Assembly (NCBI GenBank): GCA_044356455.1
Contig: JBIKWF010000006.1
Span: 1-64,000 of the forward strand
Length of the DNA stretch: 64,000 nucleotides
Source of the DNA: Bdellovibrionota bacterium
Lineage (GTDB): Bacteria; Bdellovibrionota_C; UBA2361; JBGSMV01
Direction: 5' to 3'
The notes beneath the pieces were generated by a model, which did no database searches, had not been told where the DNA came from, and worked only from the letters and a program-made list of their open reading frames with translations. Of the stretch, positions 12,461 through 23,709 are shown in pieces; position 1 is the stretch's first letter; each line of letters starts with the position of its first letter. A program made the position numbers and the translations under genes.

Positions 12461-12590
12461 GGAACCTCTGAAAAACTCACCTCTGTGTACCTCTGAGCCC
12501 TCTGTGGTAGAATTTTCATGAAGAAATTCACCACAGAGGACACGGAGGTACACAGAGGTGTCTTCAGAATGAAGGTTTTTCAGAGGTGCC
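12461..12590. mobile_element. Palindromic MITE, copy 2
   Basis: GGAACCTCTGAAAAAC ... GTTTTTCAGAGGTGCC terminal inverted repeats, 130 bp. Confidence 0.85.
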
Positions 12591-12594
12591 TTCC

Positions 12595-15910: not shown

Positions 15911-17506
15911 TTAGGCATTCCGATTAGCGGGTGAATGATGCATAAAATTCAGTGCCTTAAGTCTATTTTGGCAAATACCCCTCGCCCTAAGGCCGACAAG
16001 AATCGCGACCAATCCAAGTATCAGGGCCCCCTCCCAAGGACCGCATTCGACATACACCCCAGGGAGGCGCGCGCACTGCACCACCAGTTCACGAAGAAGA
16101 GTGAGCGCGTGCGCTACGACATCTAGGAGGAAGCCCGGCCGATCCAGGCCCCCTGCGCTAAGAACAAGCGCACCCCCACCGACTAGTGTACCTGAGACAC
16201 TGAGCACAGGAGCAAGCGCAGGATTAAGCAAAAGCCCCCCAAGGGAGACAGCTCCGAACCAAACTGCCGCGAGCGCGAGGGGAATGAGAGTTGCCCAGAA
16301 AGACACACTCAAGAACGTTTCCACCTTCCCCTTGCCTCCTTCCGCCCCTAACGCAATGCCCGCAAGAGCCCCATACGTGAGCTGCACTCCCGGCTCAAAG
16401 AGGGCACCGGGATAAAGCAGCAGAAGAATACAAAGTGAACCAAGAATAGACGTCCAAAGAGAACTCGATCGTTCAGAAAGCCTCCCGGCTACCACAAGAA
16501 CCATCGCAATCGCTGCGCGCAAACTTGAACTATCAAAACCTACCAGCGCGACAAAAGCCGTGGTGAAAAGAAAAGATGCAAGAGCTGGCAGACGCACCCA
16601 CCAAGCACCACGAAGGCCACTCAAACGCAGCACTACTCGCATCGCCCCAAAGAGGAGCGCATAGACTAGTGATACCTGATACCCCGACAGCACAAGGAGA
16701 TGCGACAACCCAGCCGCTCGAAACCCCGCTTCGGTTCGAAGGCTTAAAGAATCATGCTCACCAAGAGTAAGCGCGAGCACGAGCCCAGCTCTTTCGTGAT
16801 TTCCAAGCACCGCAATGGCCTGATCCTTTATTCTTTCGCGCACGCGCTCAAAAAATCCAGGAACTCCGCGCGCAAGCCGCGCAGCGTAACGCACGCGGCA
16901 CTCACCCGAAACTCCATGCCGGAGCAAAGTAGCCTCGTAACTAAACGGGTTCGAATTCCATGACACTGGCTGCACATGGGCGAGAAAAACAAAGGTGTCT
17001 CCACGCACCATGCCATCTACTTCGCGCCAGGGAAGGTCCACGGCGCGGCACCGAAGGATTCGGGACCGAAGAAGAGACTCACCCTCGGAAAATTCGCGCA
17101 GTACCTGAACCTCGAACTGGACACCACCTGGAACTCGGCGACGGGGGCCCTCCACGATCTCCCCAGCAAAACGCCTTTCACCTGGGACCAAGGGCTCAGA
17201 TAAACCGGCCACAAGAAGTCCTAAACTGAGACACCCAGCAGCGACGCCAAGAACAAACGGAGCGCCCAGTGCTGACCGAGACCACCTACTGAAGAAGCAA
17301 ATCACTACGGCAAGTCCCACATAAGCAAATCCGAGCCAAGCCAGCATCTGCCCTACTACTAGTCCCAAAGTGACGGGGACAAGGGGGCAAGACGCACGTA
17401 CCCGAGCGAACGCGCGCCTCGAAACTGACGTTCGAATTCCAGCAAGAAAAGAAAAATGAATCATGCGAGATTGCACCATGCGATACGAGAGAAACGCCCC
17501 CCACAC
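15911..17506 (-). CDS. comEC: ComEC/Rec2 competence membrane protein (no metallo-beta-lactamase domain)
   Basis: AGLSHLLVLSG, S..RA, PG.QLTY; multiple transmembrane helices; start uncertain. Confidence 0.85.
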   Translation of the reverse strand: MWGAFLSYRMVQSRMIHFSFLAGIRTSVSRRAFARVRASCPLVPVTLGLVVGQMLAWLGFAYVGLAVVICFFSRWSRSALGAPFVLGVAAGCLSLGLLVAGLSEPLVPGERRFAGEIVEGPRRRVPGGVQFEVQVLREFSEGESLLRSRILRCRAVDLPWREVDGMVRGDTFVFLAHVQPVSWNSNPFSYEATLLRHGVSGECRVRYAARLARGVPGFFERVRERIKDQAIAVLGNHERAGLVLALTLGEHDSLSLRTEAGFRAAGLSHLLVLSGYQVSLVYALLFGAMRVVLRLSGLRGAWWVRLPALASFLFTTAFVALVGFDSSSLRAAIAMVLVVAGRLSERSSSLWTSILGSLCILLLLYPGALFEPGVQLTYGALAGIALGAEGGKGKVETFLSVSFWATLIPLALAAVWFGAVSLGGLLLNPALAPVLSVSGTLVGGGALVLSAGGLDRPGFLLDVVAHALTLLRELVVQCARLPGVYVECGPWEGALILGLVAILVGLRARGICQNRLKALNFMHHSPANRNA

Positions 17507-17898
17507 TATCGAGGCTGATGCAGGAATGTTTCGTCTTAGGGCAAATCTTATTTCGCTAGCAATTTCGGCAGCTTAAGCCGAGAGCCTCGGTGATTCGCTT
17601 ATGCGCAAGAGTGTTCTCCCGATGAAATCGCTGTGCTAGGATCCAGCGGTAAGACTCTTCAGAGAGCTCCTACATTATTTCCCAGAGCGGCAGCACCGCT
17701 TTGGGCCCCCCACTGCGATAGCGTTCTAAACAGATTGGGGGGTGGTGTGTTGCTGGAGGCATAGGAGCCGACAGCAATCGGAACGTAACATTGAATAAAC
17801 GCGAAAGGGCTTTCCCAACTCACGCCTCGAATAACACCGAACATCGGTAAAAAGAGACCGGAGGGAAGGACAACTTTTCACGCACAAGGAGACCCAGC

Positions 17899-19236
17899 AT
17901 GGGCCAGGCCGCAAAAAAGGTTGAAACATCTTCTATGACGAGCAAATTTACCGACTACAAAGTAAAAGACATCGGTCTTGCTGAATGGGGCCGTAAGGAA
18001 ATCACCATCGCCGAGAAGGAAATGCCAGGACTTATGGCTCTCCGCGAAGAATACGGCGCCTCGAGGCCTCTAAAGGGCGCGCGCATCGCCGGGTGTCTCC
18101 ACATGACCACGCAAACCGCGGTCCTTATCGAGACGCTCATCGTTCTCGGCGCTGAGGTTCGTTGGTCAAGCTGCAATATTTACTCGACTCAGGACGAAGC
18201 AGCGGCTGCCATCGCGGCTGCCGGAATTCCCGTATTTGCGTGGAAGGGTGAGACTCTTGAAGAGTACGATTGGTGTATCGAGCAGACCCTGAAATTCGGC
18301 GACAAGAATCTCAATATGATTCTTGATGACGGCGGCGACCTCACGATGCTGATCCATAACAAGTATCCTGAAATGCTTAAGGACTGCTTCGGAATTTCCG
18401 AGGAAACCACCACCGGGGTGCACCGCCTGTATCAAATGATGGCAGAAGGAAAGCTCAAGCTCCCTGCTTTCAATGTGAACGACTCCGTCACCAAGTCAAA
18501 GTTCGACAACCTCTACGGCTGCCGCGAATCTCTCGCAGACGGCCTCAAGCGCGCCACAGGCGTCATGCTTGCTGGTAAGGTAGTCGTCGTTGCTGGTTAC
18601 GGCGACGTAGGTAAGGGCTGCGCTCATTCGATGTCGAGCTACGGTGCTCGAGTACTCATCACCGAGATTGACCCTATCTGCGCGCTTCAGGCATCGATGG
18701 AAGGCTACCAAGTGGTGACCATGGAGCAGGCTGCTCCTATTGCTGACATCTTCGTTACCGCTACTGGCAACGTCGACATCATCAACGAGAAGCACTTCAC
18801 GGCGATGAAGGACCAGGCAATTCTTTGCAATATCGGACACTTCGATAATGAGATCGACATCTCGTGGCTCGAGAAGAACTGCAAGGAAGAGTTCAATATC
18901 AAGCCTCAGGTCGATAAGTTTGTGATGAAGTCAGGTCGTGAGCTCATCGTCCTGGCACGTGGTCGATTGGTCAACCTTGGCTGCGCGAGTGGTCATCCGA
19001 GCTTCGTCATGTCGAGCTCTTTCACCAACCAAACCTTGGCTCAAATTGAGCTCTTCACCAAGAAGGGTCAGTACAAGGTGGGAGTCCACACCTTGCCTAA
19101 GGTCCTGGATGAAAAGGTGGCTCGTTTGCACCTTGGAAAGCTTGGCGTAAATCTTACTGAGCTCAGCAAGAAGCAGGCTGACTACCTTGGTATCAAGGTT
19201 GAAGGTCCCTTCAAGCCCGAGCACTATCGTTACTAG
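17899..19236 (+). CDS. ahcY: S-adenosylhomocysteine hydrolase
   Basis: [48 protein letters not shown], ends in HYRY. Confidence 0.98.
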
Positions 19237-19309
19237 TGCTATCGCTCCCGGCACCTTCGGATCGCTCGCATGGTAGCGATAGAAGAAGCGGAGAGCATGG
19301 TAAAAAAGA

Positions 19310-19345
19310 GGCGGAGTCAGGTGAAAACCTGGCTCCGCTTTTTTT
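19310..19345 (+). terminator. Rho-independent terminator after ahcY
   Basis: GGCGGAGTCAGGT-GAAA-ACCTGGCTCCGCT followed by a T-run. Confidence 0.85.
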
Positions 19346-19620
19346 ACTGGGGCTCGTGTTCATAAGACCGCGAGATGCGCCATAGCCAAAGCTAGGAGTG
19401 TGTCCCGTGGAAACAAAAATCTTCGGTATGGACAAAATCCGTAGATGAGCTGCCCCTGCCACCTCAACTTGTAGCGGCAAGAATTTTAGCCGGAACAGAC
19501 TCTAAGCGAAGCCGTCTCGGTTCATTCTGAAACTGCATTCGAAAAATAATCGCTCCGTAAGTGACAGGTTCTGTGATATTGAATTAACAAGTGATCGAGT
19601 TGGGTAGATGGGAATGGCGC

Positions 19621-20412
19621 CGCAGTCCAAGCGAATCCCCTTGAAATGCGCCTTTTAAGGGCTTTTTAGGGGACTCTCTTGGATTGCGACGACCGAGCGT
19701 AAATGGTTGCTTGGTTATATTAACTTGATCTCTCTCTCCTCCCTTGCCCCGGAACCGACAGGTTCCCGGGGTGAGTTGACTCCTCTCATGTCATGCACGG
19801 GTCCGGCGACGTCTCTACGGTAGCGACGTCAGTGGGACTCATACGGCGGGACTCAACCGGCGGGACTCAAACCGCAAGGGGCTACGACCCTTTCGTCTGG
19901 CTCCCTCCGGACCCGTGCATGATTTTTGTATTTATTCTGTAAACTTGCCCCCTCTCTCTCTTGGCGACTGGCAACATGCTGGTCGCCAAGGATTCTCCCT
20001 CTCTCCGGCACGGCAGACCTCGCGGGGTCTGCTGTGCTTTTGGCTCACCGGAATCCGTCCCGAACCCTCGGTGACGGTGGGCCAGTTTTGGGAACTGCGG
20101 AATAGAAATTAGTTTGCGACGCTGAACGCACGTCGCTTACAAAATCCTATTCTGTGGTCTCTCAGGTGTGATTGGACGATCATGTGCGGTAGGCGTTATG
20201 GTGTTGAGCAGACTTGAGGTGAGAAACACTCCCCTCCTCCCTGCACTCACCTTGCAGCGCTCCACGTGATGCCAGGTGATGCTTACTTCCCCGTGGTGCC
20301 CTCCGGCCACGAAAGCGTCACTTACCGCGCCTGCTCCTAGAGGTTCTCTGGTTTTCCTCAACCGGTTTTCCTTTAGGTCGCTCGGTCGTCCAATCACGCT
20401 TTTATTTTTCTT
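19621..20412 (+). ncRNA. Candidate large structured ncRNA or sRNA array (unknown family)
   Basis: At least nine stems, including 16-17 bp long-range stems, with G-U pairs on the + strand; U-tracts follow the long stems; no credible ORF. Confidence 0.6.
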
Positions 20413-20500
20413 AGAAAGAATTGGTTTATCAAAACAACCACTAAGACCACAGAGACCACAAAGAAAGGAGAATACTCCACTTGCCTCAGGGCATTTCTAA

Positions 20501-20649
20501 GGAACCTCTAAAAACCTTCATTCTTAAGACACCTCTGTGTACCTCTGAGTCCTCTGTGGTGAAATTTTCATGAAGAAATTCACCACAGAGGACACAGAGG
20601 TACACAGAGGTACACAGAGGTACACAGAGGTAAATTTTTCAGAGGTTCC
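20501..20649. mobile_element. Palindromic MITE, copy 3 (internal 10-bp unit expanded)
   Basis: Terminal inverted repeats; CTAA duplicated on both sides; four ACACAGAGG units. Confidence 0.88.
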
Positions 20650-20680
20650 CTAAGTTTGCCTCAGATATTCCAAGGGAATC

Positions 20681-21610
20681 TTAGCGAGGCGGGCTTGAGG
20701 TCGCCTCGAAATAACTTTGCTCAAGGCTTCTCTGACTCTCGACTCCCAGAACTCCAACCTTGTGCCTAAAAAGCCAAAAGAGCACGCGGCTATTAACCTC
20801 GGGGATTTGAAATTCGCCAGGGTTGAACTGCACAAACAAGAGCCGTGCCTCCGGGCGGGTGAACCTGAACTCGGGAAAATGTCCCTCAAGCTCCTGCAAA
20901 TCAAGATTTCCCTCATCAAGGCGAAACGTAATACGCGAACTTTGCGCGAGGAGCGACTTGATGGGTCCTTCACGCACCACCTGCCCATGGTCTACCATCA
21001 CGACATAATCACACATGAGCTGGAGCTGGCTTAAATCGTGGGAACTAATCACAAGCGTCGTGGTTCCCCTCAGACTATCAACACAGTTCCTAAAGGCCAT
21101 CACCATCTTGGGATCGAGCCCCTGGGTCGGTTCATCAAGTAGTACTACGGGGGGATTCCCCACCAACGCCTGTGCCACGCCTAAGCGCACGCGCATGCCG
21201 TGAGAAAGCGTAGCAACTAAATCCGAAGCTCGGTCTTCAAGCGCGACAAGCTTTAAAACCCGGCGCACCTCCTCCCACACTTCGCGTCCGCTGAGGCCCG
21301 CAAGCTTGGCAAAGAGAACCAAGTGCCGCTCGACGGATCGGTTTTCAAAATACATCACGTCCTGTGGGAGTACCCCTACAATCCCTCCCTGCGCTCGAAA
21401 TTGCGCAAGGGGCATGCCCTCTACTTCGATCGTCCCCGAATTGGGTTTAAAAAATCCGCCTATAAGCGAAAAGGTTGTCGTTTTACCCGCCCCATTCGAA
21501 CCAACAAAGGCAGCAATTGAAAGCTTAGGGATGGAAAAAGAAATCCCACGCAAGGCCTCACGCTTTCCGAAGCGCTTCACGAGGCCCGTGACACGCAGCG
21601 CCGCTTCCAT
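20681..21610 (-). CDS. ABC-2 type transporter ATP-binding protein
   Basis: GSNGAGKTT, LSHGMR, LLDEPTQGLD, SSH. Confidence 0.93.
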   Translation of the reverse strand: MEAALRVTGLVKRFGKREALRGISFSIPKLSIAAFVGSNGAGKTTTFSLIGGFFKPNSGTIEVEGMPLAQFRAQGGIVGVLPQDVMYFENRSVERHLVLFAKLAGLSGREVWEEVRRVLKLVALEDRASDLVATLSHGMRVRLGVAQALVGNPPVVLLDEPTQGLDPKMVMAFRNCVDSLRGTTTLVISSHDLSQLQLMCDYVVMVDHGQVVREGPIKSLLAQSSRITFRLDEGNLDLQELEGHFPEFRFTRPEARLLFVQFNPGEFQIPEVNSRVLFWLFRHKVGVLGVESQRSLEQSYFEATSSPPR

Positions 21611-22486
21611 TTACAGAGCCCTCCGCAGGAAGAGCGAAAGGCCCCCCACGCATGAAATTGCGGTCCATACGAGCATCCCCACTACGGAACGCCATTCGTG
21701 TCCAAATACCGGGGCAACGAGGCCCGTTGAAATGGGGGACCAAAAAGGAGACGCCCAAGGAGCAATAAAGAGCATACCAATAAAGGCAATCCATAGCAGA
21801 TGAAGCCGAACCACCGCATTCATCGGTTTTGCGCTCCAGCAAGAAACAAACTGCGTGCTTGCCACAAGAAAGAGCAGAAAGGCCACGAGCACCATGGCAT
21901 TAAGGGCCATCGGACGAGCATAGAGGGCCATGCTGAAAAAGGGGTCGCGTGCCGCCGAGACCACAATAAGAGCCACAACCGTAATGGCGTAGAGGATTAG
22001 ATAGAGAATGAAATGCGCCAGTAACTTAGAAAAATAGTAGGCAAGCCGAGACGTGCGAAGAAGCAAGAATCGAAGCGTTCCCCGATACACATCGATAGCA
22101 ACCATGTCGCAGCTGACAAGCGCGACTAGAGTTGGGAACCAGAGAAGAAATAGCAGCTGGGAGATTACCACCGATGACGGCCAGCCTCCGAGCTCACCAA
22201 TAATACGTGCGAGTTCTCCGAAGCCGTTTTCGTTCGCCCAATCAAGCGCTTGATTTCTTGCGCCGGCATCATTTCGGAAGAAGCCGATGCTGGGCCTGAG
22301 CCGCTCCTCAACATAGACCAGCCCAAGAACGACAAATCCAATTACCCAGACATAGGCAAACAGCGAAAGCATTGCTCGCTTACGCATGACAAGATCGCGC
22401 AGTTCTTCCTGAGTCAAAATGAAAACGTGGCGTACGAAACGGTGCAATCTCACTACCATGCCGCGAACCTTTGCCCCATTGCTCAC
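21611..22486 (-). CDS. ABC-2 type transporter permease
   Basis: RGTLRFLLLRTSR...SK motif; about six transmembrane helices; adjacent to the ATPase. Confidence 0.85.
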   Translation of the reverse strand: MSNGAKVRGMVVRLHRFVRHVFILTQEELRDLVMRKRAMLSLFAYVWVIGFVVLGLVYVEERLRPSIGFFRNDAGARNQALDWANENGFGELARIIGELGGWPSSVVISQLLFLLWFPTLVALVSCDMVAIDVYRGTLRFLLLRTSRLAYYFSKLLAHFILYLILYAITVVALIVVSAARDPFFSMALYARPMALNAMVLVAFLLFLVASTQFVSCWSAKPMNAVVRLHLLWIAFIGMLFIAPWASPFWSPISTGLVAPVFGHEWRSVVGMLVWTAISCVGGLSLFLRRAL

Positions 22487-22574
22487 TCAAGCCCAACCAA
22501 ATTGAATGCCGGTTAGTGCCTTGAATAGTGGATCTCGTTTTTCGGAAAAGAACCTTGAAGATGACTGCGCATGG

Positions 22575-22988
22575 CTAGTGGATAATTACCGGATATAGCA
22601 AATCAAAACGTGGGATAGCCACCTCAAAGAAACTTCCCTCAGCGGATCGGAAGGTATAGGAACCTTGCATCGATCCATAAGGCTCATGAATCACGGCCCC
22701 GCTCGTATAGGTAAATTTTTGTCCCTTGGCGAGAGTTGGCTGTTTTCCGACAACCCCGGGCCCGACTACTTCAGCAAGCTGCTTTTCACCTGAAAAGATA
22801 ATCCAGTGCCGCTCCATAAGCTGAGCCGTATCACTTCCTAGATTCTCTAGGGTGATGGTGTAGGAAAAGGCATACACATTCTTGGCAGGGTCGGATTCCT
22901 CGACTAAGGCCGAAGGAACTGCAGAGACCCGAATATCGCGGGTCACCTGGGAATACCCCATGCCGGCCGGATTTGGAGTTGTTGACAT
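22575..22988 (-). CDS. apaG: ApaG protein
   Basis: YAFSYTITLEN, QLMERHWII, V.GPGVVG.QP, YTSG, GSMQGSY. Confidence 0.95.
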   Translation of the reverse strand: MSTTPNPAGMGYSQVTRDIRVSAVPSALVEESDPAKNVYAFSYTITLENLGSDTAQLMERHWIIFSGEKQLAEVVGPGVVGKQPTLAKGQKFTYTSGAVIHEPYGSMQGSYTFRSAEGSFFEVAIPRFDLLYPVIIH

Positions 22989-23326
22989 ATCTGGCGGCTC
23001 CCCTTGGCATCAATGCAAAAATAGCCTGATAACCTGACTTTCTAGGATGTTGGGCTGTGAGGCAAGTGTTCTCTTTCGGCTGAGGCCCTTCGCGGACCTT
23101 GTAAGGGCGAATTTTGGTCGAACGGCGAGCCGAACGCCCCTTTTCAGCACTTTAAGGCACACAATTAGCACTAAGTTATTGCAATGACGGGCCCATCCCT
23201 TGGATCTCAGCACAAAGGTTTGCTATAGAGTCCTGCACGATGGCTAAGCTTAGGTTAGCCCCTGAAGCCCACCCCCCTGCCAAAGGGTCGTAAGGCAGCT
23301 TGTATCGGTAGTAGTCGTTTTCAATT

Positions 23327-23402
<76 letters not shown>

Positions 23403-23403
23403 T

Positions 23404-23661
23404 ATTTCCCGCTCGGCGCTCTGCCCAGGGACTCCGCCCCTCGCTTCGCTAATCGCTCGCACACCCCGTCCTCTTCGCTGGGCTTCGCCCTTCGAAGCTT
23501 TATTTACTTTGGCGACCCCATGCATTTCCCGCTCGGCGCTCTGCCCAGGGACTCCGCCCCTCGCTTCGCTAATCGCTCGCACACCCCGTCCTCTTCGCTG
23601 GGCTTCGCCCTTCGAAGCTTTATTTACTTTGACGACCCCATGCATTTCCCGCTCGGCGCTC
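23404..23661 (+). repeat. tRNA-linked tandem repeat, 120 bp x 2 plus a partial third copy
   Basis: 23404-23523 and 23524-23643 differ by one base; ATTTCCCGCTCGGCGCTC restarts at 23644. Confidence 0.95.
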
Positions 23662-23709
23662 CGGTCCCCTTGCCCTTGGGACTCGAGCCCCGTCGAATCG
23701 AGACCGATT

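Follow-up and report, generated by a model that had tools for sequence, protein, structure and literature searches.

We identified a probable, uncatalogued large structured RNA in a gene-free stretch of about 800 bases (19621-20412) that lies between ahcY (17899-19236, plus strand) and a convergent ABC ATPase gene (20681-21610, minus strand) of an uncultured lake member of the Bdellovibrionota. Positions are those of the window, the whole 64,000-nucleotide stretch of DNA that was analysed, and the genome that holds it, G000, is 93% complete. The evidence supports a plus-strand RNA as the best reading of this locus, and comparison between genomes indicates that it is a real, uncatalogued family of long structured RNAs, with three lineages known. 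Its strand, ends and abundance, as well as mRNAs as its partners, we infer. It is highly probable that a functional RNA of one kind or another is encoded here. More specifically, we hypothesize, with a probability of roughly 0.4, that one plus-strand RNA of approximately 790 nt acts on Shine-Dalgarno sites in the manner of RNAIII and the cuckoo RNAs.

Folding of positions 19615-20415 yielded -366.7 kcal/mol, with z-scores of -14.7 on the plus strand and -5.75 on the minus strand against 20 dinucleotide shuffles per strand. An earlier sequence-only reading had proposed such shuffles as a check on its candidate, and the plus strand lies far beyond them. Every stem listed in that reading was found where it had been placed: 19791-19806/19907-19922 consists of 16/16 Watson-Crick pairs followed by TTTTTG, 20165-20181/20384-20400 has 14 Watson-Crick and three G-U pairs ahead of a T-tract, the inner stems 20216-23/20246-53 and 20275-84/20313-22 pair with one G-U each, and the loop of the GNRA-capped hairpin at 19747-19771 is GACA. 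The same reading saw no tmRNA, RNase P, SRP, 6S or group II intron signature and no credible ORF, and we came to the same view. Rfam 15 models returned only chance-level matches inside 19621-20412 (E of at least 2.9), only tRNA-Thr in the whole 64-kb window at gathering score, and no family match, nor 6S at E 1, in homologs L053, L003 and L080. No ORF of at least 15 codons is kept between lineages at the locus, with frames differing even between L053 and L080. The lack of an Rfam match, the fold beyond shuffles and the presence in RNA libraries described below thus bear out the proposal of an uncatalogued large structured RNA. Two features had escaped the sequence-only reading, namely a pairing of the 5' and 3' arms (19682-19699/20379-20395) and the repeated C/U tracts. 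The parts of the RNA are collected in Table 1.

Table 1. Parts of the candidate RNA and of its flanks in the window, with the look-alike locus of genome G042 in the last line.
Feature	Position	Strand	Basis or remark
AT-rich upstream block, common to L053/L080, not seen in G001, single copy in G000; possible upstream promoter element	19538..19551	+	alignment
TGGGTAGA, invariant across the three lineages and directly 5' of hairpin A; probable -10 promoter element	19601..19608	+	conservation
Leader hairpin A, whose 3' strand supplies the first half of the 5' arm	19621..19688	+	-39.5, -29.8 and -23.0 kcal/mol in G000, L053 and G001
5' arm with invariant 18-mer; stem B with the 3' arm (12 bp + 5 bp, one bulge)	19681..19699	+	conservation, folding
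First C/U tract, recurring GATCTCTCTC motif; predicted mostly unpaired (0.75)	19725..19745	+	folding prediction
Module hairpin, GNRA (GACA) loop	19747..19771	+	folding
Module closed by perfect 16-bp stem; three GGGACTC repeats, missing in L053	19791..19922	+	alignment, pairing
Variable middle; C/U tracts 19948-19962 (0.35 unpaired) and 19993-20006 (0.46), predicted partly unpaired	19948..20155	+	folding
Middle hairpins	19960-19990, 20007-20038, 20041-20084, 20097-20155	+	pairing
Internal arm; stem C with the 3' arm; changes jointly with the 3' arm in G001	20165..20181	+	pairing, comparison
3' domain, alignable to L053/L080; pyrimidine loops 20229-20242 (holds CCTCCTCCC), 20286-20292, 20352-20359	20182..20378	+	alignment, consensus fold
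3' arm, invariant CGCTCGGTCG, common to stems B and C; then T-tract, likely the 3' end	20379..20412	+	pairing, conservation
G042 look-alike	L214:1020-2110 (G042:C1:1799630-1800720)	minus	downstream of 136-aa orphan ORF

Fold strength alone is little proof for this locus, because multi-copy hairpin families of G000 fold as well or better. When the 131 long intergenic stretches of the genome are ranked by GC-corrected energy, the locus is not among the first ten, and seven of those ten are multi-copy hairpin repeats with 66-177 copies. The stretch 19621-20412 is itself single-copy in G000, with one blastn match for its whole length and no module repeated elsewhere. Upstream, a GGGTAGA resembling the TGGGTAGA block also occurs 3' of a TTGATT box ahead of one tRNA-Leu gene; no FliA or sigma-54 promoter pattern was seen at the locus by eye. 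Beyond 20400 the DNA is a lineage-specific repeat.

The surroundings contain several repeat families. Straight after the T-tract, 20416-20495 belongs to a dispersed family found in 138 bins, and at the matching position L053 and L080 carry an unrelated 12-nt tandem repeat. Just downstream, 20498-20652 is a long inverted repeat of 10-nt units from another dispersed, MITE/REP-like family, with matches of at least 100 nt in 179 genome bins (350 bins overall) and a further copy at 12478-12592. A third G000 family of about 75 copies (e.g. G000:C79:3009-3408, C12:37894-38293 and C84:23473-23872) is built from perfect hairpins, five or six per array in a constant order, and folds strand-symmetrically with z of -11 to -18. 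Two other intergenic stretches of this genome, G000:C134:9098-9500 and C184:16615-17015, are structured, single-copy and strongly strand-biased, one lying between rplL and rpoB and one behind a short pilin-like ORF. Within the window, tRNA-Thr(CGT) and then GC-rich tandem repeats occupy 23327-23700.

Homologs of the RNA were recovered by short invariant blocks. A blastn search of 61 related genomes found a 28-nt match in G001, of the same genus as G000, at a locus that is also gene-free and converges on the same ABC ATPase, with arms 695 nt apart as compared to 694 in G000. An exact 18-mer scan of metagenomes returned 52 loci, three of which (L053, L074 and L080) are intergenic homologs with the complementary 3' arm present; they constitute one lineage, L074 and L080 being identical across the RNA, with arms 513-524 nt apart and the same ABC gene adjoining wherever the contig reaches. 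A scan of GTDB added one homolog among 32 loci, L151, from a Bdellovibrionota MAG. The upstream neighbour is not fixed, as ahcY lies 4 kb off in G001 and is missing from L053. The RNA is about 800, 775 and 610 nt long in the three lineages, with interiors that diverge and vary in length, and plus-strand folding z-scores are -14.7 in G000, -8.2 in L053 and -5.3 in G001. The sequence-only reading had advised collecting homologs from the neighbourhood of ahcY and the ABC genes and analysing their covariation; homologs beside the ABC gene were indeed found, but covariation among three sequences of the 3' domain did not reach significance (equalled in 53 of 500 shuffles), and one helix was one column out of register in that test, which lowered the count for that helix.

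Wider searches returned no further member. A 13-mer pattern occurred in 16 of 91 genomes of the order, of which only G000 and G001 had it in an intergenic position and followed by a 3' arm some 695 nt away, and a 16-mer with one mismatch occurred in 14 of 124 genomes of the class, with the other 12 matches in ORFs. A model, R1, matched in four of the 91 order genomes, the two extra matches being inside ORFs, and matched nothing near ahcY or the ABC match in three genomes of the family. The 3' domain gave only short, chance-level blastn matches; viral scans gave no homolog among 3 and 12 loci, phage searches no match, and plasmid searches one chance-level match. A match in G060 was rejected as a homolog, being inside an ORF. 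By these sequence searches the family was not detected outside one genus-level group, and as the similarity between G000 and G001 is confined to short blocks, the lack of further members reflects a detection limit as much as range.

Part of the stretch is contained in 12 freshwater metatranscriptome runs from six studies, with a share of at least 0.25 in eight of them. Contigs were aligned on 17500-23500 for 4 of 12 lake metatranscriptome runs, from three studies; they attest presence only and say nothing of strand, level, ends or RNA versus DNA template. Contigs 100% identical to the window cover 20059-20391 (X1), 20058-20392 (X2) and 20066-20371 (X4), without the 5' half, while a 712-nt contig of a related strain (X8; 29 other letters and four gaps) covers 19640-20326, its unaligned letters not being at the start side. 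The ABC genes and the gap at 19309-19509 have almost no contig cover. Contigs of two studies share ends (20058/20059 and 20391/20392) with no overhang, which hints weakly that the RNA ends near 20400 and that a 340-nt piece exists. Where the sequence-only reading had left the choice between one large RNA and an array of small ones, a long transcript is favoured and independent small RNAs are disfavoured, because the ends are complementary in three lineages and one contig runs across 19640-20326; the transcript may later be processed into pieces.

Several observations point to the plus strand. G-U pairs predicted at P>0.9 number 19, 15, 18 and 17 on the plus strand of four homologs, as compared to 7, 4, 4 and 4 on the minus strand, and the excess on the plus strand that the sequence-only reading had noticed, though not absolute, was mostly right (24 versus 10 over eight separately folded elements). 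The consensus of the 3' domain scores -82.8 on the plus strand with a favourable covariation term versus -58.2 on the minus strand with an unfavourable one. Moreover, conserved promoter-like blocks stand at the plus 5' end and a T-tract follows the plus 3' end. Folding z-scores favour plus in L053 (-8.2 versus -6.1) and minus in G001 (-8.66 on the minus strand, -5.34 on the plus). Among 26 substitutions listed for X8, an incomplete list with some differences hidden or near the contig end, 11 fall at unpaired places; of 13 pairs affected, three stay paired on the plus strand, five only on the minus strand and five on neither. A single sigma-70-like site was found on the minus strand (20432-20404), as compared to 0.8 expected.

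A common feature of the three lineages is that the ends of the RNA are complementary and have alternative partners: the 3' arm can form stem B by pairing with the 5' arm, or stem C by pairing with an internal arm, and leader hairpin A can mask the 5' arm. Isolated duplex energies for B and C are -31.6 and -29.4 kcal/mol in G000, -29.6 and -29.6 in L053, and -29.7 and -36.4 in G001. G001 has altered versions of both the 3' arm and the internal arm that still pair, and its unchanged 5' arm pairs with two bulges. Full-length prediction gives A+C in G000, L053 and L080 (P 1.0) and mostly B in G001 (0.81). With the leader removed, P(B) rises from 0 to 0.40 in G000, 0.54 in L053 and 1.0 in L080, and is 1.0 in G001; the predicted balance is sensitive to the ends chosen, slightly different ones giving 0.19 in G000 and 0.01 in L053. 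Stem C is predicted to form fully in the 3' piece alone. According to these predictions, hairpin A would mask the 5' arm in the growing chain and stem C would close the 3' domain ahead of the T-tract; after removal or opening of the leader, the 5' arm could capture the 3' arm, stem C would open, and all modules would be tied into one multiloop. Such a switch from A+C to B might set the stability of the RNA, its processing or the exposure of the 3' loops. It is a prediction that would serve a regulator of ribosome-binding sites, a sponge or a precursor alike.

The second recurring feature is the pyrimidine character of the linkers. C/U words number 62 in G000 and 43, 43 and 45 in the other three homolog sequences (shuffled means 27, 23, 22 and 26), while purine words number 5-14 and purine tracts are nearly absent, none of at least 8 nt occurring on the plus strand in G000. 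Of all non-coding 600-nt windows in G000, two tie for the highest C/U score, and the locus is the only structured one of the two. Four of the G000 tracts are predicted to be unpaired at 0.75-0.81 and three others at 0.35-0.54, and the loops of the 3' domain in L053 and L080 at 0.79-1.0. The U-rich run and C/U tract after the 5' arm are kept in three lineages. Because the hairpins diverge freely and the linkers stay rich in C and U, the most plausible division of labour is that the linkers do the work and the hairpins space them. The stems adjoining the C/U tracts are not conserved, so that seeds could not extend into a conserved target pairing, which suits a protein sponge at least equally.

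Other contigs of the host carry tmRNA (C79), RNase P (C107), an SRP S-domain match (C121; 44 bits, below the large-SRP cut-off) and a 16S rRNA that ends in the standard anti-Shine-Dalgarno sequence; AAGGAG is the commonest upstream hexamer. We also identified two CsrA genes (C163:2555-2707 and C107:2754-2903), two RRM genes and one Rho gene, with no Csr-type small RNA identified in G000 and no match to Hfq in this 93% complete genome. 6S RNA (RF00013) was found neither in G000 nor in any of the 91 order genomes, by a search that detected it in 4 of 14 controls; no 6S-like signal lies upstream of a ygfA-like gene (G000 C146:26087-26449), and a scan for rod-shaped 6S-like folds on contigs through C38 gave nothing convincing.

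We hypothesize that the GC-rich hairpins, as predicted, hold the repeated C/U motifs single-stranded, and that the exposed motifs might pair with the purine-rich ribosome-binding sites of many mRNAs without Hfq. The lack of Hfq would fit this style of regulation by unpaired C-rich motifs. Pairing of such motifs with ribosome-binding sites has been described for RNAIII, RsaE and the cuckoo RNAs (PMC3053349, PMC4615179). When 3731 crude gene starts were screened for duplexes, no conserved target stood out. One candidate was pilC, the invariant 12-mer being the exact complement of the last pilC codons in G000 and a second patch falling on the ribosome-binding site of the next gene (-37.9 kcal/mol); it was rejected, as the 12-mer occurs in only one of 30 pilC ends (that of G000) and the own arm of G001, which has the RNA, scores -21.4. 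With the pilC site lost in G001, no mRNA target was found. The gene after pilC (L177:3248-5308; G000:C154:16148-18208) is of separate note: it encodes a PilS-like membrane part, PAS, a sigma-54 activator and a Fis-type HTH, joined in a single protein without a kinase or receiver match; it is thus a one-component fusion of PilS and PilR, and a pilin gene lies downstream of it.

A look-alike of the RNA was found in G042, a member of another family of the order, as a 550-nt structured stretch (z of -7.5, other strand -5.5) with GATCTCTC twice and with C/U linkers. A 12-nt match to the promoter-like block of L053 lies 589 nt upstream with the orphan ORF in between, and the locus is not syntenic and is without arms. 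This was the only look-alike among the places examined in motif scans (21 of 21 and 71 of 105), the low-z loci L282 and L295 lying in long ORFs. The element had no match in other genomes of the order, no counterpart at its locus in 29 others and no Rfam family, and its 136-aa ORF had no Pfam or convincing Atlas match. It may be a distant member of the family or a convergent element.

RRM domains prefer CU repeats, and the architecture of CsrB is the model for the most credible of the alternatives, though still one we hold to be unlikely: a sponge for a pyrimidine-binding protein (RRM, Rho or S1), the C/U counterpart of CsrB, with GAUCUCUCUC-type motifs as its sites and the switch between A+C and B controlling release or decay. 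The repeated motif, the variable module number, the freely diverging stems, the RRM and Rho genes of G000 and the lack of a conserved mRNA target all agree with a sponge, but from module to module the motifs vary more than is usual for the site of one protein, and the literature on RRM sponges that was surveyed is eukaryotic only. A sponge on the opposite strand, CsrB-like and binding CsrA through single-stranded GGAG/GAGAG tracts, is very improbable: the two CsrA genes, the ANGGA counts (6/5/4/4 on the minus strand versus 1/0/1/2 on the plus), the better minus-strand z of G001, the sigma-70-like site and the slight lean of the X8 substitutions towards minus are set against G-U counts, consensus energy, promoter-like blocks and a T-tract that all belong to the plus strand. 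In a broader version, to which we would give no better odds than to the pyrimidine sponge, these RNAs would be a new class of modular C/U scaffolds, abundant long ncRNAs of uncultured Bdellovibrionota that titrate a pyrimidine-binding protein or the Shine-Dalgarno-dependent translation machinery; leader cleavage would clamp the 5' and 3' ends in a conserved two-state switch, the RNA might regulate life phase in a lineage where neither 6S RNA nor Hfq is detected, and the look-alike of G042 would point to a larger family that sequence searches do not see.

The shared contig ends 20058/20059 and 20392/20391 hint weakly at a precursor from which several small RNAs are cut, for example a stable 3' fragment of some 340 nt and individual C/U-hairpin modules, as in tandem sRNA arrays. 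The U-rich linkers after several modules and the formation of stem C in the 3' piece alone would fit such cutting; we nevertheless find it improbable, as an array has no need of complementary ends, one contig spans 19640-20326 and the modules are not copies of each other. Even slighter is the chance of a passive remnant, whether of a decayed hairpin-repeat, of a mobile-element array or of a type I toxin-antitoxin system, that is passively transcribed. Pairing of 5' and 3' ends with a metastable leader resembles type I toxin mRNAs, G000 contains many multi-copy hairpin arrays whose folds equal or surpass that of the locus, and the G042 look-alike occupies a non-syntenic position downstream of an orphan ORF. 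The locus is, on the other side, single-copy, with invariant blocks and kept pairings in three lineages, a strand asymmetry unlike repeats, no conserved ORF, no purine tract of at least 8 nt on the plus strand of G000 and no phage match. Least probable of all is a 6S identity for the 236-nt 3' domain, which would then be a far-diverged 6S RNA that is freed from the long precursor and binds sigma-70 RNA polymerase. Its size and closed ends, its presence in RNA libraries and the 6S gap in G000, in the order and at ygfA would suit this origin. A 6S RNA is expected to be an unbranched rod with a large central two-sided bubble; the 3' domain is instead predicted to be a branched junction in all lineages, without such a bubble, gives no 6S score even at E 10, and was detected in one genus-level group only, even though no genome of the order yields 6S. 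On balance we retain the preferred reading of a single plus-strand RNA that would act on Shine-Dalgarno sites.

Among known systems, RNAIII of S. aureus is similarly a long multi-hairpin RNA with long-range helices closing its domains and C-rich motifs in loops or accessible strands that match ribosome-binding sites (PMC3053349). In our RNA the C-rich motifs are predicted to be mostly or partly unpaired. It differs from RNAIII in lacking sequence or Rfam similarity, a conserved ORF like hld and the agr locus, as well as in its length of about 600-800 nt, its variable module number and its three-way alternative end pairing. With the cuckoo RNAs RSs0680/CcsR and ar14 (PMC4615179) it has in common modular hairpins, variable stems and an anti-Shine-Dalgarno-like pyrimidine motif, including one exact copy of CCUCCUCCC at 20233. 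Cuckoo RNAs comprise 2-4 short adjacent hairpins with the motif in each loop and no multiloop; our RNA is longer, multibranched and end-paired, has its motifs mostly between hairpins, and belongs to a non-alphaproteobacterial host. Among the Bdellovibrionota, merRNA (445 nt) and APsRNA6 (655 nt) of B. bacteriovorus are likewise stand-alone, lineage-restricted long ncRNAs without a conserved ORF (PMC3627812). The c-di-GMP riboswitch that merRNA contains has no match here. GOLLD, ROOL and OLE are of comparable size, several hundred to more than 800 nt, and some GOLLD RNAs share the freshwater source (PMC12286853); our RNA has no Rfam match, had no viral homolog in the scans, is chromosomal and not beside a prophage or tRNA island, and is modular and fast-diverging where those RNAs are ornate and conserved. 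No description of this RNA was seen in the surveyed literature on Bdellovibrio 6S and merRNA, Bdellovibrionota ncRNA and novel large structured RNAs (including bioRxiv 10.1101/2025.05.17.654431), a survey that most subscription papers and the supplements of large screens lie outside.

Unlike REP, REPIN and MITE elements, which are strand-symmetric palindromes present in many copies, this locus is single-copy and strand-asymmetric, and unlike at type I toxin mRNAs, a conserved small hydrophobic ORF with a Shine-Dalgarno sequence was not found. CsrB/RsmZ sponges combine a repeated single-stranded motif with variable length and poor sequence conservation; the plus-strand repeats here are C/U rather than GGA, and the many GGA motifs of those sponges do not appear on that strand. 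To our knowledge, bacterial ncRNAs of 600-800 nt are few, most of them being phage-borne ornate RNAs or lineage-specific regulators. Our RNA comes from a lineage with 6S undetectable in 91 genomes and no Hfq found in G000, and thereby offers a testable handle on RNA regulation in uncultured Bdellovibrionota. It would also be an example of an RNA family that covariance models built from sequence would miss: a chromosomal, non-Rfam RNA whose grammar, an end-pairing switch with repeated C/U linkers, persists despite the turnover of its sequence inside a single genus.
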